From NCBI GenBank assembly GCA_030390025.1, contig CM059431.1:104286001-104350000 (forward strand): a stretch of DNA of 64,000 bases, written 5' to 3'. This document shows positions 1,034 through 61,426 of this stretch, piece by piece. Positions within the stretch are counted from its first letter, which is position 1. The number at the start of each line of letters is the position of its first letter. The notes under the pieces are model-generated. The model was not told the origin of the DNA and did not search any database. It saw only the letters and a list, made by a program, of their open reading frames with translations. Position numbers and translations under genes: made by a program. Source of the DNA: Squalus acanthias (lineage: Eukaryota).

Positions 1034-1292
1034 GTGTCATCTGTGGCTCAGTTGGTAGCACCCTCACCTCTGAGTCAGAAGGTTGTGGGTTCAAAGTCCC
1101 ACTCCAGAGACTTGAGCACAAAATTCTAGGCTGACACTTCCAGTGCAGTGCTGAGGGAGCGCCGCACTGTCGGAGGTGCTGTCTTTCGGATGAGATGTTA
1201 AACCAAATCCTCGTCTGCTCTCTCAGGTGGATGTAATTTATCCCACGGCACTGTTTCGAAGAAGAGCAGGTGCATTATCTCTGGTGTCCTGG
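1034..1292 (+). mobile_element. DeuSINE (SacSINE1-like), 5' half only
   Basis: tRNA-like head GTGGCTCAGTTGGTAGCA...GGTTCAA and core GTCTTTCGGATGAGATGTTAAACC; matches the full copy at 34649-35117; breaks off at 1292. Confidence 0.8.
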
Positions 1293-1318
1293 CATCCGAT
1301 CAAGCTGCGCAGCACGAG

Positions 1319-2401
1319 GTGTGCGTGCTTTACGGGGCGTGGTTACTGGGCGAGGGCCGCAGTAATTTGGAGGATTTAAAACAAGGTTTGGTCCCGTCCT
1401 GGATAAGTAACAAACACCTGCGGGCGCTCCACCCTTTTCAGAACGCATTAAGTCCGTGCCAGCTCAGGCTAGCTTCAGAAGCTTACCCAGTCCCCGTGGA
1501 CTGCGGACGATCAAACCATACTATTATGGGAATAGTATTACGCATGCCGGTTTTGGGCGACACAGCAAAGCCCGCCCCGGTGTATCGGGTAGAGAACATT
1601 GGTGTCATTCAGGGGGGAGCCCACATTCGTTACGCAGCGGTTCCACCTTACGTCATCCGCTGGGAGCAAACGATGACAGGTACAGATCTCTCTGGTTGTC
1701 GTGGCAGGGGAGCACACATAATACTGTGCCCCCAGCACTTGAATGCCTTTTTAACACCACAGTGCGGGTTCAGAACGACTGGCGCCAAGTCCATGAATTG
1801 CACCATGGAGGCAATGGCACAAGATCATGTGCCTCCGCAGGTAGCATACATCGGGGGTGGAACATATTGTGTTACCACTGCAGCGCAACACTACCAGCAT
1901 GGAAACCGTAGCCGGTGTCCGGTGAGTGACAGCAGTTTCTGTTTTAAACCCAGGGCGGAAGTTCAAGTAGCACAACAGCGAATTATCCCAATCCCTGAAC
2001 CATCCACTGTTCATCTCACAGTAAAAGAGAATTTCACCGACTTGCAGCGATTCGTCGCGCATTTTGGATACCTCATTCCCCCTCTCCCTGAACACCTCAC
2101 CAAACTTTTAAAAGCCGTCGCGGTGTCACAGAAACACTTTTACACATTAGAACAGAAAACTGTCGAAATAGGAACAGACATTCTGGATATAGTAGTTCCA
2201 CCGTGGTGGAATCTGTTCACTAATATTGAAGTGCCTTCATGGATCAGAATAGCCTCCCACATTTTAGTCGTATGCCAAGTTTTCATTGTAGTGTACCTAT
2301 TGGTCGTACATTGTAAAAGAGACAAGCGCCTCACCAAGCATGAAAACACGGGAGAGTGGCGAGAACGTTACGTGCGCGTGCACGATGAAAGCACCGTGTG
2401 A
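1319..2401 (+). CDS. env: C-terminal ~360 aa of a retroviral-like envelope/fusion glycoprotein (open frame, N-terminus deleted)
   Basis: Cys-rich ectodomain, heptad region, TM IASHILVVCQVFIVVYLLVV, short tail; about 20 aa differences from the minus-strand copy by eye. Confidence 0.8.
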   Translation: MCVLYGAWLLGEGRSNLEDLKQGLVPSWISNKHLRALHPFQNALSPCQLRLASEAYPVPVDCGRSNHTIMGIVLRMPVLGDTAKPAPVYRVENIGVIQGGAHIRYAAVPPYVIRWEQTMTGTDLSGCRGRGAHIILCPQHLNAFLTPQCGFRTTGAKSMNCTMEAMAQDHVPPQVAYIGGGTYCVTTAAQHYQHGNRSRCPVSDSSFCFKPRAEVQVAQQRIIPIPEPSTVHLTVKENFTDLQRFVAHFGYLIPPLPEHLTKLLKAVAVSQKHFYTLEQKTVEIGTDILDIVVPPWWNLFTNIEVPSWIRIASHILVVCQVFIVVYLLVVHCKRDKRLTKHENTGEWRERYVRVHDESTV

Positions 2402-2852
2402 TCGGAAAATGGCGTCACTCCCGCTCGCCACGTGCGCCGCGGAAGTTTGTACTCGATGATGATTTTCAGAGATTGTAAATACGTTGGGAACTCGACACGT
2501 TTTGAGAGTTGGTGTTGATTATTTTGGTGATGGTGTTACAGTTAAAAATGATTGTTTGGTTTTGGGTTTTGTTTTTCCTTTCCCTGAATAAAAGATGAAT
2601 ATACAGGTGATACGAGAGGCATCGGCCTGGTTACGCCGGGAAGGAAAACAAGTGGTGTAAGTTTAAGGGCAAATAATGCCTACGGTGATATAAAATGTAA
2701 TTTTCTTGGGAAATAAGGACGACACAGAGACCCTAGCTAGGTTAAATTTTATGGGATTAATTTGCTGGATTCGGAGAGAAATCGAGATAATATTGCTCAC
2801 CACTATGATTTTTGATACGATAAGCGGAGTTATTCGCATCAACAGGAGGGAC

Positions 2853-4510
2853 TGTAGAATTCGCAATATATCGCGATTTTATTAATAAGGAGAAAACACA
2901 GAGTTTCGTTCAAACAGCTTTTATTTCAGCAGAATGCTGGCAGGTTTAAAGTGGACACAAGCAGCCTGTAAAATGGCCGCCGCACCTCGTGACAGAACAT
3001 TCTAGACTTTTCAACAGGCAGACAAGATGGCGTTCCAATAAACATTTGTGCAAGATCGATTAAGATTCAGCACAGTGAAGATAATACACGAGACATTATG
3101 GGTTTGCAGTATACACATAGATACTGAAATCGGTCTCCCAGGTACAAAGGAAAGCCATTGTACCGAGTAATCAAGGGCCCATCCAAAAGACATTAATATG
3201 TAAAATCCCAACGACTCTACGATGAGAGAGCCGTTAGCAGGTAGTTTTACATTCAATTGGAAGCCCCAAACCCCTCCAGGGAGAACACCGACCGATTTAA
3301 CAATGGGAGAGCTATTAACAGGTACTCAGACATTTACGAGTAGCCCCGAAACCCATTAAGAACGGAGATCACCCATACAAGACATTTGAGCGCCAGATCT
3401 TAAACAAAAGAATGGACATTATAGTTGGGCGGGAAACGGAAGATTTTTGCACTATAATTGCAGGCTCCAAACCGTCCATCTTTCTCTTGCTGCTCTTATC
3501 ATCGTGGCTGCTCCTGTGCTCTTGTTTTTGTAACCTCGTGGCTGCTCCTGTGTACTCGTAGTTGGGCTCGCTCCTGCTTGCCTGTTGCCTCTTCTGAAAA
3601 GACTGTTGAACTTTCTGATCCGTTCGGATCTACCTCGTGTCGCGTAACGAAGACCTATATTGGTAACCGGTATCGGAACCAAAAGGCCCGAGATGAGATG
3701 AGATGAGATGAGATGAGAAGAGAGGAAGACCATATCCATCGCCACGGTCAGTAAATCCCGACCGCGCCTGTAGGTCGATTAGCCAAGTTTTCCTTGCCAG
3801 GAAGACTTCTTCGAACTTGCAAAGAAACATATCGTATCGATGATATCGACAACTGTGCTCGAAGAGTACCTGTTAAACCAACCAACACAGGTCTTCATCA
3901 CAGCAGACGTTCCAGCCTGCTAGCCGGAGCAGCAGAAGCAAGTAAACAAGCGGGACCAGGAGATCTCCTGACCGACACGTGGGTGCTGCGGTGAAAAACA
4001 TCCGAGCAGCTATTCGGAATTTCTCCGAGTTATCACGAGTGGTGAGCATGAGTCTCGAGATCCTACGAATCTAGTTTAGGATAGATATTGATAGGGGAGG
4101 GTTTAAGGATTAAGGATATTTGTAATGTGTGCCCCTATTTACTTTGTGCCGTTCGTTCCTCGTTTCCCTAAGATCGACTATATAACTGTTTGTAAGATTG
4201 TACTGTCATTAATCTGTGCTTATGACATGTATTTCATAATCTTAAGTATCATGCAATAAAGATTTTCCATTTCGTACCATTCAAACCGAGTCTACATGAG
4301 TTTCATCTCCATTACTGCTCTCGCATCTAAGTCCAGTGTCTAGAACCGTAAGGGAGAGTGATTCGAACCACTCACAGGTGTGTCTAGTGTTCCCAGACTG
4401 GCTGGAGACCAGAACAGGCAACGAGGCCTAGACCCGCACTGACATACAGGCTGCACAGAGCCGCGTGAATCTCACAGGCTGCGAGACACGCACGGTCAGA
4501 ATCCCTTACA
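2853..4510 (+). repeat. 3' LTR (1658 bp) of the truncated element
   Basis: TG..CA termini, follows the PPT, AATAAA at 4255-4260, (GAGAT)n at ~3690-3717, patchy homology to LTR 12698-14358. Confidence 0.85.
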
Positions 4511-4633: not shown

Positions 4634-4637
4634 TAAG

Positions 4638-6753
4638 TGTAAGGGGTTTCGGTCGTAGGTACTTGTGCGGGGTTAGGCCTTCGTTGCCTAATACTATTGC
4701 TTGCTCTGGTCTCCAGCCAGCCTTGTTGCAATAAGCACCTGTGAGTGGTTCGACCCACTCGCCCTTACGGTTCTAACACTGGACTTAGGTGCGAGAGCAG
4801 TAATGCAGAGAAAAACTCAAATAGACCCGGTTGAATAGTACGAAATGGAAATCTTTATTGCATAACGTCCAAAATCATGAAGTACATGTCATAGGCACAA
4901 ATTAATGACATTACAAGTATACATACATTCATAAAACTTGGTCTAGGGTAATGAGGAACGCACGGCACATCGTAAAAAGGGGAACACATTATATTTATCC
5001 TTAATAAAATCACCCTCCCCTATCAATACCTACACTAATCTAGATTTGTAGGATCGAGGAAACATGCTCACCACTCGTGATACTTCGGAGAATTTTAAAG
5101 TAAGGCACTCGGCTTGTTTCGCTGCAACACCTGACCGTCACGTGTTGGAAAGGGTCTCTGTACCCCACTTGTTTATCTTCTCTGATCCGGCTAGCAGGCT
5201 GGGCTCCCCGTTGTCATGAAGAACTCGACAGTGCTCGGGGCCCGGCTGTAGAACTCAAAGAAAAGTCTTTCTGGACCGACACCAGTTGTCGATAGAATTC
5301 GAAGAAAAGTCTTTGACCAGTTCATGCAGTAACCTGTAGAGTTCAAAAATGGTCTATATATTTTCGGGCGCGGTCGGGGTTTACTGACCGCGGCGGCACG
5401 TGGATTCTTCTTCTTCTCTTCTCATCTCGTCTCGTCTCATCTCTTCGGGCCTTCGGGTCCAGAACACCGTTTACCGACCCTCGGGATGGTGCACCCGGTC
5501 ACTGGCCTTCGTTGAGGCGGCTCGCTCCAAATTGAGCTCCACCCAACATAGGAGAATAAAAGTTCAGCCCGCGTCCAGAGTCAGTTCAAATGAATCAGCC
5601 CCGGGAGGATCAGAGGAATAAGAGAGTTCAGCAGCCAGCAGCAAGATAAGAGTCAAGAGCCAAGAGACCGATGGACATTTGTGCTGTGTTCCCTTATCTC
5701 CCACCCAAATCTTAATGTTCATCCTTTGTAAAATCTTGGCGCTCAAAATTCCCAGTATGGGGTGATTCTTTCCTTTAATGGGTTTCGGTAGCACCTTAAA
5801 CTGGCCAACTATCCGTTGGGCAACACGGTGGCATAGTGGTTAGCACTGGTGCCTCACAGCGCCAGGGACCCGCGTTCGAATCTGACCTCGGGTGACTGTC
5901 TGTGTGGAGTTTGCACATTCTCCCCGTGTCTGCGTGGGTTTCCTCCGGGTGCTCCGGTTTCCTCCCACAGTCCAAAAATGTGCGGGTTAGGTTGATTTGG
6001 CTATGATAAATTGACCCTTAGTGTTAGGGGGTGTTAAATATGTGGGGTTACGGGGATAGGATAGGATATGTTAGGGGGAATTAAATACGTGGGGTTACGG
6101 GGATAGGGTGGGATATGTGTCGGTGCAGGCTCGATGGGCCGAGATGGCCTCTATCTGTACTGTGGGGATTCTGTGTGAGAAAGCAGGGACAGGGTACTGG
6201 ATTTGGATGATCAGCCATGATCGTATTGAATGGTGGAGCAGGCTCGATGGGCCGAATCTCCTGCTCCTAGTTTCTATGTTTCTATGTAATGTTTTCCCCA
6301 TTGTCGAGCCGGCTAGGAGTCTCCCTGACTGGTTTTGGGGCCTCCTCGAATACTGACTTAATCACCTGAGAATGGCTCTCTCATTGTAGAGCCGTGGGGA
6401 ATTTGCGTATTGATGTATCTGGATGGGCCTTCGATTGCCCAGTACAATGGTCCTTACTTGTGCATGGAAAATGATTCCAGCACTTATCTCTTGCTATTTT
6501 GTCGAATGCAGACAGGTTGCATCCTGTCTTTATCAGTGTTTGCTGCGTATTAACCAATCTTATACTGAAATGTTTATTCGAACGCCATCTTGTCTGCCCA
6601 CTGTATTCTGGAAGCTTCTGCCACGATGCTCGGCGGCCATTTTACAGGCTTCTGTGTCCTTTATATCATGACAGCATTTCGTTGAAATAAAACTGATGAA
6701 ACGAATCTGCTTCTATCTCGTTATTTCGAATCGCGATAATTGCGAATTTTACA
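4638..6753 (-). repeat. 3' LTR (interrupted by a SINE at 5818-6287)
   Basis: Direct repeat of 12698-14358 with roughly 20-25 substitutions and one 16-bp indel by eye; minus-strand AATAAA at 4854-4859. Confidence 0.95.
5818..6287 (+). mobile_element. HE1-like V-SINE inserted in the 3' LTR
   Basis: tRNA head, V-domain TGTGTGGAGTTTGCACATTCTCCCCGTGTCTGCGTGGGTTTCCTCCGG, CR1-type tail (TTTCTATG)n; absent from the 5' LTR. Confidence 0.9.
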
Positions 6754-6765
6754 GCCCCTCCTGTT
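6754..6765 (-). promoter_or_regulatory. Polypurine tract
   Basis: Minus strand AACAGGAGGGGC directly before the LTR TGT. Confidence 0.8.
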
Positions 6766-7185: not shown

Positions 7186-9535
7186 TTACGCGGCGCTTTC
7201 CTCGTGCATGCGCACGTAACGTTCTCTCCACTCTCCTGTGTTCTCCTGCTTTGTGAGGCGCTTGCCTCTCTTGCAGTGCACGACCAATAGGTACACTACA
7301 ATTATTACTTGGCACACAACTAAAATGTGGGAGGCTATCCTGATCCATGAAGGCACTTCAATATTGGTGAACAGGTCCCACCACGGTGGGATTACTATGT
7401 CTAGAATTTCTGTCCCTATCTCGACAGTCTTTTGTTCTAGGGTGTAAAAATGTTTTGCGATACCGCGACGGCTTTCAAAAGCTTGGTGAGGTGTTCAGGG
7501 AGAGGGGGAATGATGTATCCGAAATGCGCGACGAATCGCTGCAAGTCGGTGAAATTCTCTTTTACTGTTAGATGAACAGTGGATGGTTCAGGGATCGGGA
7601 CAATTCGCTGTTGTGCCACTTGAACATCAGCCCTGGGTTTAAAACAGAAACTGCTGTCACTCACCGGACACCGGCTGCGGTTTCCATGCTGGTAGTGTTG
7701 CGCTGCAGTGTTAACGCAATATGTTCCACCCCCTATGTATGCCACCTGCGGAGGTACATGATCTTGTGTCATTGCTTCCATGGTGCAATTCATGGGCTTC
7801 GCACCAGCCATTCTGAACCCGCATTGTGGTGTTAAAAAGGCATTCAAGTGCTGGGGACACAGGATTATGTGTGCTCCCCGGCCACGACAACCTGAGAGAT
7901 CGGTACCTGTCATTGTTTGCTCCCAGCGGATGACGTAAGGTGGGACCGCTGCGTAGCGAATGTGGGCTCCCCCCTGAATGACACCAATGTTCTCCACCCG
8001 ATACACCGGGGCGGGCTTTGCTGTGCCGCCCAACACCGGCATACGTAACACTATACCCATGATGGTATGGTTTGACCGTCCGCAGTCCACGGGGACTGGG
8101 TATGCCTCTGAGGCTAGCCTGAGCTGGCACGGGCTTAATGCGTTCTGAAAAGGGTGGAGCGCCTGCAGGTGTTTGTTACTTATCCAGGACGGGACCAAAC
8201 CTTGTTTTAAATCCTCCAAATTACTGCGGCCCTCGCCCAGTAACCATGCCCCGTATAGTACGCACACCTCGTTCTGCGCAGCTTGATCGGATGCATTCCG
8301 ATCTTCCCTAATCAGGGCATTTACCGTTCTCGCATGCTTCTCCAGTTCTGCTATAATTTCCTTTAAGTGTAGCGTCATGGCCTGGTCCTCATGTAACTCA
8401 GACCCTACTACCTTGTTTTCGCTTGTGAGGATGCTTTTTAATTGTGTTTTTAAACCATTGATCTGGGTCTGCAGCTCCACGTTGTCTAGAGCGTTGACCA
8501 CAGATGTTCCTGTATTAAAGGCGGTGAACATATCGTTCACAATACCCCTTCTTTGTCTCCCCACCTGACCCAAAACTTCGTGTGGTGTGGTGTACAAGCT
8601 TGTCTTGTCAATCTCTGCAAAATCAAACTCGTAGAATTGTCTGAACATGTTTGTCAACAGGACCTGGTACAATTGTTCCGTCTCTTTGGGGCACCACTCT
8701 GGCAACCGCACCTCAGTGAGATTTAAAATCACCGAGGCCACCGCGTAATGTACCCCCTGAAATAGTATCTGGTCTGTTGGGACCAGTACCAAACCATTCC
8801 CGGGCCCCTTAGTGGTTTTAGGGCACCCTTCCTCCTGAGCCAAAACCACCGGAATCGTGGGCGGGCCTTGCGTGGGCGCGTGATGAGTTCAGTGGCGTTT
8901 ACCGGGATCGGGGAGTATGGAGCTCCGCACCCCCTGGTGCTGACATCCCACCTCATCCCTTTCCCGTTATCCTGCCACTGGTTTACAAAAAATATGGATA
9001 TACCCTTGGGGCAAACGTACTTCGATCCCCACATACAAATATATATTCCCTCATCCGGTTCCCACCATTTGTCCCAACAGACTTTCAATTGTCCGTTAGT
9101 CCCCGTAATTGTCCGATGGGTATTGTTACCCAATCGCTCCCACTCAACCGAGGAATTTCTCATATTCTTGCTCAATTTCCATAACCACCACCATCGGCTC
9201 AATGGGACCTTCCCATTGCATGTCAAACAAATCCTTTTGCCGACGGTGACGCTGATTCTGGGGGCAATGATCCTCACTCTGGGGCACAGTAAAGAAGTCT
9301 CTTTGTAGGCAAATCCCGATGCACTGGAGTATTCCATTGAATTCGTTCCCAGCCATCCCGGCCACCTTCCCTTGTGGAAATAAGTGGCGGTCTCCTCAGC
9401 CTTTCGCTTCCCGGTCCCATCCGTCACGATGGGGGCCGTGTCCCCGGAGCAACCAAACACAACGACATCCTTGGTGAGGCCCCGATAGGCCAATCCATAT
9501 CCGATCGCTGCGAGCACTATCAGAATCCGTTCCAT
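7186..9535 (-). pseudogene. env: env: signal peptide + Ig-like domain + T/P linker + furin-cleaved fusion glycoprotein + TM; two 1-nt frameshifts (~8878, ~7452)
   Basis: MERILIVLAAIGYGLA signal; C..W..DEGIYIC Ig motif; RQRR|GIVNDMFTAFNTGTSVV followed by a heptad repeat; the 3' frameshift is resolved by comparison with 1319-2401 and the frame ends EESAA*. Confidence 0.8.
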
Positions 9536-9812: not shown

Positions 9813-10892
9813 CTAAATTCTGCGAAGGCTGCCACAAGGTTTTCCCAACAGTGGGAGGGCACTGACCCCTTCCTTTGATCTGCCGCAGCCTGTCGCTGCT
9901 GCGCTGGGACTGGGATCTCCCTGGGCTGCCTTGACCTTGAACTTACGCCTGGGGGCATACGGGGGACTTGACCACGCCTTCCTGGGCTGGGGTGTCCGAC
10001 CTGACCTACGGAGGGCTACATTGGACAAGGTTTCCAGGGCCGACGGACCGGGTACCGAGACTTCCACCGTCGCGGCCTGTGGTCCCACCACAGCCGCTGG
10101 CTCCGTCTCCCCTGGCTCCGCCTCCCTGAACTCGGGATTTGCAGTTTCTGGTACCACCCTGCTTGGCCCAGTATGTGGTCCTCCACTCGCAATCCCTACC
10201 TCCCCCAAGGGCAAGACTTCCAGGGCTGACGGACCGGGTTCCGAGACTTCCACCGTCACGACCTGTGGTCCTACCACAGCCGCTGGCTCCGTCTCCCCTA
10301 GCTCCGCCCCCCTGGGCTCGGGACCTGCAGTTTCTGATTCCACCCTGTGTGGATCTCCACTCGCAATCCCTATCTCCCCTAAGCTTGAGTCGAGGACGAA
10401 CCTTTCGTCCTCCGATCTCAGCACCTCTCCGATCGGGTCACTATCTTGGTCGAGCTCCTCGAGCTCTTCCTCATCAGAATCCCAACCCCAAGAAAAGATC
10501 TTACACATTCCTAGAATGTCCTCTCCGCTCAAGCAGGCTGCTTTACCGGTCTGTGTGCCCTGCTGTCCTGCTTGGGGCTCAGAGACCCCACTCGCAGGAC
10601 TGGCCCCTCCCCTAAGACAGGCCACCGCCCCTGCTTGTGCATTCTGTGAAATCTCGCCTGCTGGAGGCTGCAGATTTCTATTCTGTTTTAAATCCTCATA
10701 CTCCCTGCTCCTGGCTACCCTGTAGGCTGCTTTTATGTCTCTAAGCTGCCCTTCTAGCCCGTCTACTTTCCCCATTAAACGGGCGTTCTCCTCCCGTAAG
10801 GCCTGCTCTTTTAACCTGGCCTCCTTACAGGAGACCCCCTCCTGTGCGTGTCTTTCAAGGGGACACAGGTAGGCAGGCTGCACCGGTTCCAG
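9813..10892 (-). CDS. ORF2 in the pol position: coiled coil + acidic/Pro-rich repeats, no enzymatic domain; in frame with gag after TGA-CTG
   Basis: Open ~359 codons; coiled coil similar to the Gag N-terminal region; ~60-aa tandem duplication; LRRSGR..P motif near the end. Confidence 0.6.
   Translation of the reverse strand: MEPVQPAYLCPLERHAQEGVSCKEARLKEQALREENARLMGKVDGLEGQLRDIKAAYRVARSREYEDLKQNRNLQPPAGEISQNAQAGAVACLRGGASPASGVSEPQAGQQGTQTGKAACLSGEDILGMCKIFSWGWDSDEEELEELDQDSDPIGEVLRSEDERFVLDSSLGEIGIASGDPHRVESETAGPEPRGAELGETEPAAVVGPQVVTVEVSEPGPSALEVLPLGEVGIASGGPHTGPSRVVPETANPEFREAEPGETEPAAVVGPQAATVEVSVPGPSALETLSNVALRRSGRTPQPRKAWSSPPYAPRRKFKVKAAQGDPSPSAAATGCGRSKEGVSALPLLGKPCGSLRRI
10027..10384 (-). 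repeat. Two-unit ~180-bp coding tandem duplication in ORF2
   Basis: LGE(I/V)GIASG...ETEPAAVVGPQ..TVEVS.PGPSALE occurs twice. Confidence 0.85.
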
Positions 10893-12693
10893 TCAGAAGT
10901 CTGGGTTGTATGGGGCTGTTGCTACCTCCCCGTGCGAAATCATAAGAGATCGCATGGCTCCTAACATTGATTCTATCGCATCGGGATGGATAGGCACACC
11001 AGCTCCTTTCTCAGAGACAGGCGCTTGGGTTCGGACTGCGGGAGCTTTTTCCCTGGAATCCTTCCAGGGATTCCTGCAGTTTTTACGCCAGTGACCTGTC
11101 TTTCCGCACCCGTAAAAAGCACCACTGGCCTGTGGGGCGCGGTTTCCCTCCTGATGCCACTCCTTTTGAGCCGGGGCTGCGGGCCGTACCTCATGCACCT
11201 TTCCCTTAAGGGGACACGCTCCCGTGCTCCTAGTGTTCCGATACCCTATCGTGAGTCGATTTAGGACCGACTCCTCTGTTGTGGCGGGGTTAGTGGGATC
11301 AAACCATGCTTTGGCCTGCTCCCTGACAGCTGGCAAACTGTTGGCTACTAAACACCTGAGCCAATGAGTTAAACCGGCACCGTCCAAATAATCGCGCCCT
11401 GGCGCACCTGGGCAGCTACGCTGGTATACTGGCCACAGCCTGTCGGCGAAAACCTTCGGGGGTTCTCCCTCCATCTCAACTGTCTGACCCAATCTAACGA
11501 ACGGACCTTCGTCATCCGCCCCTAACACTTCTAGGACCTCGTCCCTTAACTTCTCATAGGTATTATTTCCCCTCTTGCTCTCGACTGAGAGACACTGAAG
11601 GATCGAGCTATCTAACGAGAACAGCAACATTTTAGTCTTTTCCGCATCGTCGCAGCCATTAATTGCTGCGGTCTGTTCTACCTCCCTGAAGTGTACGGAA
11701 GGGTCGTCTGACTCAGACAGCTTCCGTACATGACTAATCATCGCTCTCAGCTGGTGTGAGCTGTGAGGCAACACAAGCTGGTTCAGGACATCCCCGTCTG
11801 CCCCATTGTCTCCGTTCGGGCCCCTCTTGTGACCTGTAAGCGGACACAACGGTCCCGGCTTTCGACACTACCTCTGGGGATTGTCCTACCTCGGGGACCT
11901 CCTCTTCTATTTCCACCACTTCCTTCCTTACCCAGGTTGCCGAATAGCTGGGTGGCGCAGAGGGCGCAGTGGCAAATACCTCCTCTGCTTTGTCTGGTAG
12001 GGATTTTGGGAATTCCCTACCCACCTGTGGCTGGTGTGCTGACGGGCTGATGAGGCACACCATGCCGTTTGCCTTATTCAGGGTCTCTCTTAGGCTCCCT
12101 ATCTCCTTCTGGCAAACACTGTGGTCGGCTCCCTCATGCTTATCTTCGAGGGCCATCTTATATGCCGCCCTAACTCCCTTCAAGCTTTCTTCTTGGGCTC
12201 TTATCTGGGTAGCTAGGCGAGCACACCGTTCTCTAATCCTACCCTCGTTTAACTTCGCTTCTGTGACCTGACACTCTAGTTAATCTATTTTAGCCTCATG
12301 GTGGTTGGCTACTATCTGGCGTTCCTGATGTAACGCATTCAAGGATGCGATGAGTTTCTGTCCTCCCGTGACCTTTTCCTCCATCTCAACTTCCAATTCC
12401 CTGATCTGAGCTGCCTGTGCTACAATGACCTGGTCCGAAAGTTGGACTTGCTTCTTGTAGCACATCAGCCAGACCGCTTTCTCTACCGACTTCTTATGCT
12501 CTTTACTGTCTGTCCATTTGATGGCTGCGTCTAGCGGACGCTTATCCATCAGCAGGTCACTTATCCACCTTTTGGTTAAGTTAACCTTCCCAAACACATA
12601 GTCGGCTACCCTCTCATCCATCACATTTCGCCTATTCACACCAGGGTCTAAAACATTACTCTCTCGCTGCCAGCCTCGTGCCGCGGTCGCCAT
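10893..12693 (-). pseudogene. gag: gag (coiled-coil N-terminus, capsid-like domain, degenerate CCHC knuckle); one in-frame TAA (12280-12282) and one frameshift (~11850-11900)
   Basis: ORFs 12280-12693 and 11734-12183 are in one frame; 10893-11849 has capsid-like DPSVHFREVE and EGEPPKVFADRL, and F-YGCGKTGHWRKNC. Confidence 0.8.
12675..12692 (-). promoter_or_regulatory. Putative primer-binding site overlapping the gag ATG
   Basis: LTR-CA GAAAA TGGCGACCGCGGCACGAG; the first 8 nt fit a tRNA-Arg(TCG)-type 3' end (from memory). Confidence 0.5.
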
Positions 12694-12697
12694 TTTC

Positions 12698-14358
12698 TGT
12701 AAGGGGTTTCGGTCGTAGGTGCTTGTGCGGGGTTAGGCCTTCGTTGCCTAATACTATTGCTTGCTCTGGTCTCCAGCCAGCCTTGTTGCAATAAGCACCT
12801 GTGAGTGGTTCGACCCACTCGCCCTTACGGTTCTAACACTGGACTTAGGTGCGAGAGCAGTAATGCAGAGAAAAACTCAAATAGACCTGGTTGAATAGTA
12901 CAAAATGGAAATCTTTATTGCATAACGTCCAAAATCATGAAGTACATGTCATAGGCACAAATTAATGACAGTACAAGTATACATACATTCATAAAACTTG
13001 GTCTAGGGTAATGAGGAACGCACGGCACATCGTAAAAAGGGGAACACATTATATTTATCCTTAATAAAATCACCCTCCCCTATCAATACCTACACTAATC
13101 TAGATTTGTAGGATCAAGGAAACATGCTCACCACTCGTGATACTTCGGAGAATTTTAAAGTAAGGCACTCGGCTTGTTTCGCTGCAACACCTGACCGTCA
13201 CGTGTTGGAAAGGGTCTCTGTACCCCACTTGGTTATCTTCTCTGATCCGGCTAGCAGGCTGGGCTCCCCGTTGTCATGAAGAACTCGACAGTGCTCGGGG
13301 CCCGGCTGTAGAACTCAAAGAAAAGTCTTTCTGGACCGACACCAGTTGTCGATAGAATTCGAAGAAAAGTCTTTGACCAGTTCATGCAGTAACCTGTAGA
13401 GTTCAAAAATGGTCTATATATTTTCGGGCGCAGACGGGGTTTACTGACCGCGGCGGCACGTGGATTCTTCTTCTTCTCTTCTCATCTCGTCTCGTCTCAT
13501 CTCTTCGGGCCTTCGGGTCCAGAACACCGTTTACCGACCCTCGGGATGGTGCACCCGGTCACTGGCCTTCGTTGAGGCGGCTCGCTCCAAATTGAGCTCC
13601 ACCCAACATAGGAGAATAAAAGTTCAGCCCGCGTCCAGAGTCAGTTCAAACGAATCAGCCCCGGGAGGATCAGAGGAATAAGAGAGTTCAGCAGCCAGCA
13701 GCAAGATAAGAGTCAAGAGCCAAGAGACCGATGGACATTTGTGCACTATAGTTATAGTGCTGTGTTCCCTTATCTCCCGCCCAAATCTTAATGTTCATCC
13801 TTTGTAAAATCTTGGCGCTCAAAATTCCCAGTATGGGGTGATTCTTTCCTTTAATGGGTTTCGGTAGCACCTTAAACTGGCCAACTATCCGTTAATGTTT
13901 TCCCCATTGTCGAACCAGCTAGGAGTCTCCCTGACTGGTTTTGGGGCCTCCTCGAATACTGACATAATCACCCGAGAATGGCTCTCTCATTGTAGAGCCG
14001 TGGGGAATTTGCGTATTGATGTATTTGGATGGGCCTTCGATTGCCCAGTACAATGGTCCTTACTTGTGCATGGAAAACGATTCCAGCACTTATCTCTTGC
14101 TATTGTGTCGAATGCAGACAGGTTGCATCCTGTCTTTATCAGTGTTTGCTGCGTATTAACCAATCTTATACTGAAATGTTTATTCGAACACCATCTTGTC
14201 TGCCCACTGTATTCTGGAAGCTTCTGCCACGATGCTCGGCAGCCATTTTACAGGCTTCTGTGACCTTTATATCATGACAGTATTTCGTTGAAATAAAACT
14301 GATGAAACGAATCTGCTTTATCTCGTTATTTCGAATCGCGATAATTGCGAATTTTACA
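12698..14358 (-). repeat. 5' LTR (1661 bp)
   Basis: TG..CA termini; direct repeat of 4638-6753. Confidence 0.95.
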
Positions 14359-15097
14359 TAAGAGCGACTGTTGTCTTTACGATGACAGGCCATACAATGG
14401 GAATCAAAAAGCCCAAAGCACATGTCAGTGAGCTTGTTCCTGTTGAGTCAAAAACAACGGGCATCGATGTTCTGTCAGTCCCAAATAGTTGGTTCCTTGC
14501 TGAATTATTTTTTTTCTCCTTCTTTTCTCTCTGCTGTTGTAAAGGAACTGATGCTGTACAGTGAACGCTGTAACCAAATGAGACATTGCCGTTACTCATT
14601 AACATGACAAAACGAGCCTGTGCTGTGAAAAAAATAACACGCAAGTCTTTAAAGCGGCTTCAATTGTGCCTTATAATGTATGCAGATCACACTGGGGTTT
14701 GATAGGGAAATCACAGGTTGCCTTACGTTAGTCGAGTCTGCCCTGCTCTAATTAGTTTAATTAGTGCTTTAGTCACTGTGCGGTAATCCATTATGACTGT
14801 GGTTAATTAACTCTGGAATAGATGAGTTTGCAATAATTACACCTAAAGTCACTTTGGGTGGATGTTGAATCTGGACAAGCCCATGATATTGGTCCCAAAT
14901 TCTTCAACTCCTTAATCAGCGCTTGGCAGCCATTGGCATTAAATACCGACACACGAATCTTCAATAAATGTTTCAGTTAGATTCAGCAGAAGCTGCACCC
15001 AAATTTTTCGAATGCTGTAGCAACGTCTTAATACTACCAAACATTAATGTTTCATTTAATGGAAAATAGTAGCTGGGCACTTTTCTGATTTTAAAAA

Positions 15098-60111: not shown

Positions 60112-60531
60112 GGGCAACACGGTGGCATAGTGGTTAGCACTGGTGCCTCACAGCGCCAGAGACCCGGGTTCGAATCTGACCTCGGGTGACTGTCTGTGTG
60201 GAGTTTGCACATTCTCCCCGTGTCTGCGTGGGTTTCCTCCGGGTGCTCCGGTTTCCTCCCACTGTCCAAAAATGTGCGGGTTAGGTTGATTTGGCTATGA
60301 TAAATTGACCCTTAGTGTTAGGGGGGGATTAAATATGTGGGGTTATGGGGATAGGATGGGATATGTTAGGGGGAATTAAATACGTGGGGTTACGGGGGTT
60401 GGGTGGGATATGTGTACTGTGGGGATTAAAGCAGGGACAGGGTACTGGATTTGAATGATCAGCCATGATCGTATTGAATGGTGGTGCAGGCTCGACGGGC
60501 CGAATGGCCTACTCCTGCTCCTAGATTCTAT
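60112..60531 (+). mobile_element. HE1-like V-SINE (tail continues at 61427-61453)
   Basis: Near-identical to 5818-6287. Confidence 0.9.
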
Positions 60532-61426
60532 GGGGTAAAAATTCACTTGGTTGCGCCGCCTGTTAGCGCCTTAAGAGGGCGCTAATGGGGCGCAAAGCCG
60601 CTAACGCCCGGGCGCAGCGATGTTTGCGCCGCTCGAGAACTTAACTTGAGATTGTGCGGCGGCGCTAAAACTTACCGCTGCGACCACCTGCGCGCGCAGA
60701 TTGTGACGTCATTCCATGGTGCAACGCCCTTGGGGCGCCCCGTAGCGGAAATTGAGTGGCGCCCCCTGCCTTACCGCCTGGCGCTTCCAACGACCAGAAG
60801 ACTGGAACGCTATCAATCGCTGTGGGGCTGGGGGGGGGGCGCTATTTAAAGGGGGCCTCTTCCTGTCTTTTATTGTTGGTGGCATTTTTGAACTACGCAT
60901 TCTGAGAGAGAGAGGGAGAGACTTCTGGAGAGATTCAACGTTGTGTGAAGGAGTTTTGGGTACTGAGCAGCACTTTGCAGGTTCATTTTGATTTGCCATT
61001 CCTTGTATCGATTTAGCAGAGACCGTGGGAGCTGCACTCTGACCTCTTTGCCTGGTGCTCTCCATTGTTCTTTCCAGCACATTTGATGTGCAAGTCTCTC
61101 CAGGCCGAGATTCAAGGCAGCAATGAACAGGATGTGGATGGAAAGCAAGATTAACCATCCCCTTTAAGAACTGGCCCGTGCCATTGTGTGTGTGTTCCAT
61201 TGCTGACTGACATTACATGAGCTTCGCCAGCGCTCCGAGTTAGCGCCTCACTGCTCGGCCTTTGCGCCTTAAGAGAGGTGTGCAGCGCCTGCTTTAACGC
61301 TCCACTCACCTCCCGGGGCGGTAAAAGTGAAGTTTCCCGTCAGTGCCGATAATTAGCGCCAGGCGCTAATATTTGCGTCCGGACGATATTTGCGCCCCAA
61401 ATGGGGCGCGACCTAATTTTTACCCC
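60532..61426. mobile_element. Non-autonomous Harbinger-like element, copy 2, inserted in the SINE tail
   Basis: Perfect TIR GGGGTAAAAATT, 3-bp TSD TAT. Confidence 0.9.

Follow-up and report, generated by a model that had tools for sequence, protein, structure and literature searches.

The window analysed here is a 64,000-nucleotide (nt) stretch of the Squalus acanthias genome (GCA_030390025.1, contig CM059431.1, positions 104,286,001 to 104,350,000). On its minus strand it harbors a 9.7-kb long terminal repeat (LTR) element in which gag is followed, behind a TGA stop, by a second open reading frame (ORF2) at the place of pol. Comparisons across the 3.7-Gb genome indicate that pol was replaced by a cassette composed of pieces from retrovirus families B, C, and D; this cassette formed in family B and later passed to family A, to which the window's gag belongs. 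We consider it about as probable as not (roughly 0.5) that stop-codon readthrough was inherited from pol-bearing parents, that the frame behind the stop is kept for RNA stability, and that the ORF2 protein is a passenger. The mosaic is real and well explained, and there is little to argue for a new protein. What surprises is its descent from four families, the transfer of a single cassette from one family to another, and the preservation of the reading frame.

ORF2 spans 10892-9813 (minus strand, as are all features of the element) and contains 359 codons from stop to stop, in the same frame as the last gag frame. The gag end reads TGA CTG GAA CCG GTG, with the TGA at 10895-10893, so that the in-frame ORF2 of ~359 codons described in a first-pass annotation of this DNA is confirmed. 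Codons 1-12 (10857..10892) represent a pol start of family B type. This region matches pol-bearing B at 53 of 65 nt, pol-bearing A at 45 of 65 nt, and a B cassette copy at 69 of 74 nt, and the last ~12 codons of gag are likewise of family B type. Codons 13-23 (10824..10856), followed by an in-frame 30-nt deletion, are a short Gag piece whose source is either family C or a C/D recombinant, and codons 24-68 (10689..10823) correspond to the second half of the family D Gag coil. Codons 69-71 (10680..10688) are a remnant of the family C capsid start, left after an in-frame deletion of 132 nt (44 codons of the Gag piece) that is the mark of the window's subfamily. The start of the family B integrase tail follows at codons 72-95 (10609..10679; 58 of 67 nt identical to the pol-bearing B copy L065), and codons 96-359 with the stop (9813..10608) form a family A integrase tail (761 of 796 nt identical to the pol-bearing copy L036). 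A reading of codons 72-90 as capsid continuation was ruled out, the sequence being that of the family B integrase tail.

The coil of ORF2 had been described as a paralogue of the Gag coil of the element itself. The protein alignment between the two is indeed significant, with 16 of 43 residues identical and a score of 81, where 2000 shuffles of the Gag piece reached 66 at most; the local score of 75 was reached by none of 10000 plain and none of 10000 heptad-preserving shuffles. The DNA, however, matches the gag of families C and D and shows no match to the element's own gag. The window's coil is identical to the family D copy L099 at 119 of 134 nt (89%) and to family C at 99 of 131 nt, and the coil of the B cassette copy is 91-95% identical to family D gag. 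Moreover, the ends of the cassette's Gag piece match family C at 93-98%, whereas its middle does so at only 72%. It is therefore very improbable that the element's own Gag coil was duplicated long ago and that the duplicate diverged into a separate accessory gene, for all the significance of the protein match; the reverse capture, by C and D, is excluded by their full-length spacer and capsid. Judged by these sequences, the coil is a recently captured piece of a sister-family Gag. The middle of the coil (72% DNA and 81% protein identity to family C) had also been considered as a 'recoded' family C segment, which the closer donor, family D, ruled out.

The fold of Gag was modelled on P0001, a relative with 61% identity, and contains a 116-residue helix followed by capsid helices; its best structure match is the capsid of murine leukemia virus (MLV; E 0.006). 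This model has a pLDDT (predicted local distance difference test) of 62 and was built on a 12-row alignment. By this model, the captured piece would run from the latter half of the long N-terminal helix through the next helix to the first helix of the capsid, but without the spacer. The window's subfamily no longer has the last two of these helices, which the 132-nt deletion took away. At the end of the Gag coil, all families conserve a His and two Cys on the flanks of the last helix, a candidate metal site; these residues are present in the long cassette and gone from the window's subfamily.

The remainder of ORF2 is largely inherited. An acidic stretch (10481-10437), a 186-nt duplication (10383-10209 versus 10209-10023, 83%), and LRRSGRTPQP (10013-9984) lie where the first-pass annotation placed them, and all of them, the 62-residue duplication included, are already contained in the family A integrase tail. 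The motif of LRRS type, followed by W and PxY, is common to the pol tails of families A, B, and C and may resemble chromatin-binding motifs of other viruses. The earlier likening of this motif to integrase C-tails stands, and its assignment to the Gypsy type does not, the parents being retrovirus-like with a tether plus RNase H. Similarly, the proposal that the ends of pol were kept and its enzymes replaced is supported by the pol-bearing siblings, except that the replacement itself is small: only about 59 of the 359 codons are not derived from pol, and 264 are a sibling's ordinary integrase tail. No Pfam match to protease, reverse transcriptase (RT), RNase H, or integrase core was found in the window's element, in which only the pol ends align.

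Pol-bearing siblings of family A were located through Gag matches ending short of the window's gag end. Three of four fetched regions are arranged as gag-TGA-pol with protease, RT, tether, and RNase H, and the fourth carries a longer ORF2; two of the pol-bearing regions were traced on to integrase and env. The siblings are 94-97% identical to the element across tail and env, as expected of a helper with a matching body. Their pol has both RT_RNaseH and RNase_H matches, corresponding to a tether plus RNase H, and the RT matches the structures of MLV RT (2.5e-63), foamy virus (4.9e-55), and Ty3 (3.6e-40). Parents of Ty3/Gypsy (Metaviridae) type were ruled out by the second RNase H and by an RT closer to MLV and foamy virus than to Ty3. 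In a quick RT tree (44 rows, 5 short matches left out, no named Loki or foamy reference), the parents group with amphibian and coelacanth elements (support 81), and two PFGY-type proteins stand apart on a long branch.

Family B has a Gag 47-51% identical to that of family A, and its first copy contains the same cassette (92-93% DNA identity) together with its own tail and env. Among regions fetched on the tail side, 4 of 16 hold pol-bearing members of B, as do 3 of 10 fetched on the gag side. A pattern search for the Gag donor type yielded family C in 11 of 12 matches, likewise arranged as gag-TGA-pol. Family D, the donor of the middle, was found in 5 of 20 Gag-coil regions surveyed across identity classes, in addition to two C/D recombinants; it is 91-95% identical to the cassette middle in the first half and 86-94% in the second. 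At least six gag lineages (about 90, 80, 75, 66, 62, and 58% identical to family C), C/D recombinants among them, occur in the virus group.

The cassette leaves the pol of family B after codon 12 and re-enters the integrase tail of the same family. Its joins thus lie in B's pol start and B's integrase tail, which shows that the cassette originated in B; two crossovers, one close to the end of gag and the other within the integrase tail, then carried it into A. A second pol-less form of family B (three copies: L078, L079, and L082) is built from scraps of protease, RNase H, and integrase, some of them about 90% similar to family C; the scraps are joined in frame behind TGA CTAG. These copies carry private frameshifts, two of them after about 130 codons and one later. 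Elsewhere in the window, at 1292-4440 on the plus strand, lies a truncated related provirus whose env end is 94% and whose LTR about 72% identical to those of the element; this contrast suggests that families have swapped env as well.

The TGA takes the position of the gag/pol stop of the family, in line with its original description as a readthrough-type stop. It is present in all 11 pol-bearing gag/pol junctions read (3 A, 3 B, and 5 C), eight of which continue with CTAG, and gag and pol lie in one frame with this single stop between them, as in the gamma/epsilon-like, readthrough-type gag-pol. The stop is UGA and does not match the UAG-plus-pseudoknot form of such junctions. Because pol follows in frame and no other start is seen, the pol-bearing parents most likely use readthrough of UGA. 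Among cassette copies, we distinguish A-short (the 30 best DNA matches in the genome, picked by likeness to the window and including its copy) from A-long (family A copies with a longer ORF2; 20 fetched, of which 19 belong to family A and one, the first B copy above, has another tail). The TGA is retained in 30/30 A-short, 19/20 A-long, and 13/14 matched B copies (2 of 16 were unmatched by the script), and CTG stands behind it in 29 of the 30 A-short copies. CTGG follows the stop in 47 of 50 A cassette copies, the window's (10893..10895) among them, whereas pol-bearing relatives mostly have CTAG; the 16 B cassette copies comprise nine with CTAG, four with CTGG, one without the stop, and two unmatched. 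TGA CTAG is the ancestral context and CTGG the derived form. In human reporters, UGA-CUAG is the strongest context, with CU at +1/+2 essential, according to the available part of 10.64898/2026.07.14.738498, and the accessible text of PMC13517186 mentions UGACUG as occurring naturally in one alphavirus.

The reading frame of ORF2 has been kept. All six founding non-homologous joins are in frame; three have at most 1 nt of microhomology, the other three have 4-8 nt, and one skips a 10-nt out-of-frame match between the parents that lies a few bases off. In addition, the shared length changes of at least 3 nt are in frame in 7/7 cases (A: -3, +69, -24; B: -3, -39, +189, -24; hand count, p 0.0005 at an in-frame chance of one in three), compared with 0/6 private ORF2 indels and 2/19 shared intergenic indels. 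The anticipated conservation of the frame is borne out, with ORF2 open at full length in 22 of the 30 best copies, and constraint on its amino acids is not seen. We compared nonsynonymous with synonymous polymorphism (pN/pS) in 26 A-short copies, since five of the 30 form one tandem array that was counted once. For variants shared by at least two copies, pN/pS is 0.26 in gag, 0.73 in ORF2, and 0.63 in env; for private variants the values are 0.51, 0.76, and 0.77. The shared values of gag and ORF2 differ with p 0.0009, and this difference of 0.26 versus 0.73 indicates that gag was constrained during replication and ORF2 residues not detectably so. Shared and private values are also alike within the coil (0.43 versus 0.40; 13 and 20 variants) and the tail (0.80 versus 0.84). 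Codons 1-12 vary least among copies (0.006 per site versus 0.017-0.067). Judging by the sequences, an open frame appears to be more important than the protein encoded in it.

These patterns would be explained as follows. The element, a non-autonomous endogenous retrovirus (ERV), would make its own Gag and borrow protease, RT, and integrase from pol-bearing siblings, which would also mobilise it; its joins would have arisen by template switching between co-packaged RNAs. Because the parents must express pol past the UGA and the cassette retains the UGA signal and codons 1-12 of pol, a small fraction of ribosomes probably continues, even now, to the old pol stop. The unspliced RNA has a long untranslated stretch behind gag, and such ribosomes may protect this RNA from nonsense-mediated decay; thus spared, it would stay available for packaging, the Gag-ORF2 product being a minor passenger. 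This proposal draws on reporter work, in which readthrough by MLV, Colorado tick fever virus (CTFV), and an unstructured UGA context protects RNAs from decay (PMC5360307, in the portion available).

A number of observations weigh against this explanation. The window's subfamily carries CTGG and not CTAG, and readthrough in the human reporters fell with 764 of 765 changes to the four bases that follow UGA (10.64898/2026.07.14.738498, available part). Folds behind the stop hint at a downstream stem (minimum free energy z-scores of +0.8 to -2.0, one of 21 at -3.2), but no stimulatory stem stands above shuffles in folds without pseudoknots, and the arm pairing is equalled by 10-43 of 60 codon shuffles in all seven sequences. 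The six founding joins are ascertained, as the element was flagged for its open frame. Five of the seven shared length changes lie between repeated in-frame units, where slippage preserves the frame even in the absence of selection. Two of 26 A-short copies and three of 15 B copies carry one-base changes in G/C runs that may be shared frameshifts, and counting them as such leaves 7/9 in frame (p 0.008). The absence of shared stops from ORF2 in the 26 A-short copies is not significant, about two being expected. The low pN/pS of gag may have been imported by recombination with pol-bearing A copies, and the pairwise ratio of nonsynonymous to synonymous divergence (dN/dS) of the coil within A-short is 0.30 (0.13-0.67).

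Several of these points bear on a possible but unlikely alternative in which ORF2 is under no selection at all: a scar of deletion and recombination, multiplied since the element is short and has working ends, its frame open since the copies are young and since switches between coding repeats tend to be in frame. The near-equal shared and private pN/pS of ORF2, the 4-8-nt microhomologies at three founding joins, the possible one-base frameshifts, the LTRs only 2.2-2.6% apart, and the drift from CTAG to CTGG in family A all agree with it. It accounts less readily for the three joins without microhomology and two shared 3-nt deletions that are nevertheless in frame, for the join bypassing the nearby 10-nt out-of-frame match, for the independent second pol-less B form that is also in frame, and for the expansion of the cassette in two families.

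That same expansion, after the cassette had moved whole from B into A, would fit selection on the Gag-ORF2 fusion itself, as a minor readthrough product with a foreign Gag coil and an integrase tail through which Gag joins sister-family particles or the incoming genome is tethered to chromatin. The low coil dN/dS within A-short, the in-frame duplication of the coil in 4 of 20 A-long copies, the clean removal of the coil-capsid spacer, and the conserved LRRS-type motif also speak for such a protein, which we nonetheless regard as doubtful. Shared and private pN/pS do not differ for coil or tail; the Gag piece has a between-family dN/dS of 0.74 (0.36-1.63), its second half above 1 between A and B, and intervals span 1 in nearly all other comparisons between cassette groups. 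In addition, the window's subfamily is without the second half of the Gag piece, and the second pol-less form has no coil. The co-assembly role suggested for ORF2 at first is so far unsupported, given the missing amino-acid constraint and the 44 lost codons. It is in our estimate improbable that the cassette is a selfish transferable module swapping out pol in successive families, a satellite function behind a readthrough codon that spreads by recombination; if so, its Gag fusion with foreign coil and integrase-tail tether would let the element parasitise particles of several divergent helper families.

The element itself is complete in its ends. The 5' LTR (12698..14358, 1661 nt, TGTAA...TTACA, ends read directly) and the 3' LTR (4638..6753) are 97.4-97.8% identical, the latter split by a later repeat insertion at 5818-6286 that resembles 60112-60532 and is presumably a shark short interspersed element with a LINE-type end. 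A 4-bp target-site duplication, CTTA (left 14359..14362, right 4634-4637), and a polypurine tract (6754..6765) were read directly. The primer-binding site (12675..12692) matches tRNA-Arg(TCG) genes of the same genome at 16 of 18 bases and overlaps the gag start codon; the overlap covers the first gag codons (12675-12693), and family C has two such sites in tandem. Paired LTRs, primer site, polypurine tract, and target-site duplication are thus all present, as in a non-autonomous ERV. The family A gag (10896..12693) encodes a long N-terminal coil, a capsid, and a zinc knuckle, and its named relatives are skate, catshark, and whale shark proteins. The env (7186..9535) has a furin-type site and features of F proteins; its language-model neighbours are Baculo_F (0.96) and Fusion_gly (0.93), values that come without an E-value and with recognition below threshold, and it has no Pfam match, an Ig_3 match in the N-terminal part (9535-8870, E 0.78) lying below threshold. 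In the window's copy, gag is broken by an in-frame stop near 12280 and a frameshift near 11865, and env by frameshifts near 8865 and 7450. Because its own gag is broken, this copy is unable to make the Gag-ORF2 fusion.

Copies of the element are young and dispersed, with 40 of 40 scored genome matches at 92-100%. The array of cassette elements lies at C3:64.28-64.32 Mb (L009-L012 and L014), with a spacing of about 6.4 kb. Contigs from four of eight runs (kind unconfirmed) span the cassette and show the 3-nt and 69-nt variants; they are uninformative on transcription. The tRNA-Arg(TCG) end has 570 matches genome-wide, and tRNA-Arg(TCG) genes, repeated every 1623 bp, form long tandem arrays at C26:39.0-42.2 Mb (L116). 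A protein search with the whole ORF2 found no match among 8000 candidates of 197-629 residues, which says nothing on uniqueness. The long Gag piece as query gave four matches, three Gag or Gag-start proteins and one whale-shark gene model, none with the layout of the cassette. The gene model (P0007) fuses a Gag coil to the Env start of the same virus group and may be a spliced or deleted form.

The element documents how retrovirus families with Gags no more than 40-50% identical have recombined repeatedly in nature, and all donors still reside in the genome. It also offers a direct evolutionary test of the reporter-based idea that retroviral readthrough protects genomic RNA besides making Pol, and it brings to light gag/pol junctions of UGA-CUAG type in a cartilaginous-fish retrovirus lineage, where three families have them and the envelope is apparently F-like. 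Should the protein prove to be a passenger, the cassette would serve as a good case study rather than as a new system.

No description of such a cassette was found in the open-access literature searched, with Repbase and Dfam outside its scope, and the available portions of 10.1101/2023.10.26.564294, PMC5210030, and 10.1101/2021.11.23.469661 contain nothing on the shark element. The systems compared here are taken from similarly partial texts. recKoRV (PMC6112702) is likewise a multi-copy defective provirus formed by germ-line retroelement recombination and then remobilised; its frames are highly disrupted, whereas the shark element draws on four families, has kept gag and env, and has an open frame behind the gag stop. 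The zebrafish BHIKHARI elements Bik-1 and Bik-2 (10.1101/2024.03.25.586437) are also non-autonomous and recently active, and their Gag has an N-terminal coil and a capsid, but they contain gag only, without env or a frame behind a leaky stop, and their Gag has a glycine-rich end in place of the zinc knuckle. Lokiretroviruses (PMC7947760, with PMC9040795 and PMC12440569) share with the shark parents the tether plus RNase H and the N-terminal Gag coil, their 'smc', written smc-gag-pol in the supplement of PMC7947760; their Env is F-like, as that of the shark parents may be. They differ in the RT motif (PFGY in the Loki entries shown, LPQGF in the shark parents), and the text of PMC7947760 consulted neither reports them from cartilaginous fish nor describes a pol-replacing cassette, 'stop codon' being absent from its main text. 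Type II readthrough in alphaviruses and human UGA-CUAG genes (PMC13517186; 10.64898/2026.07.14.738498) uses the same stop context as the pol-bearing parents, although no downstream stem is supported in the shark element; the retroviral contexts in the available parts of these two sources are UAG-G, UGAAGA, UGACGA, and UGAAGU, none of them UGACUA. XtERV-S, a class III ERV of Xenopus (PMC8278194), differs in its own serine primer, 5-bp target duplication, gamma-type Env, and intact pol, and has the same arrangement of gag and pol in one frame, split by TGA.

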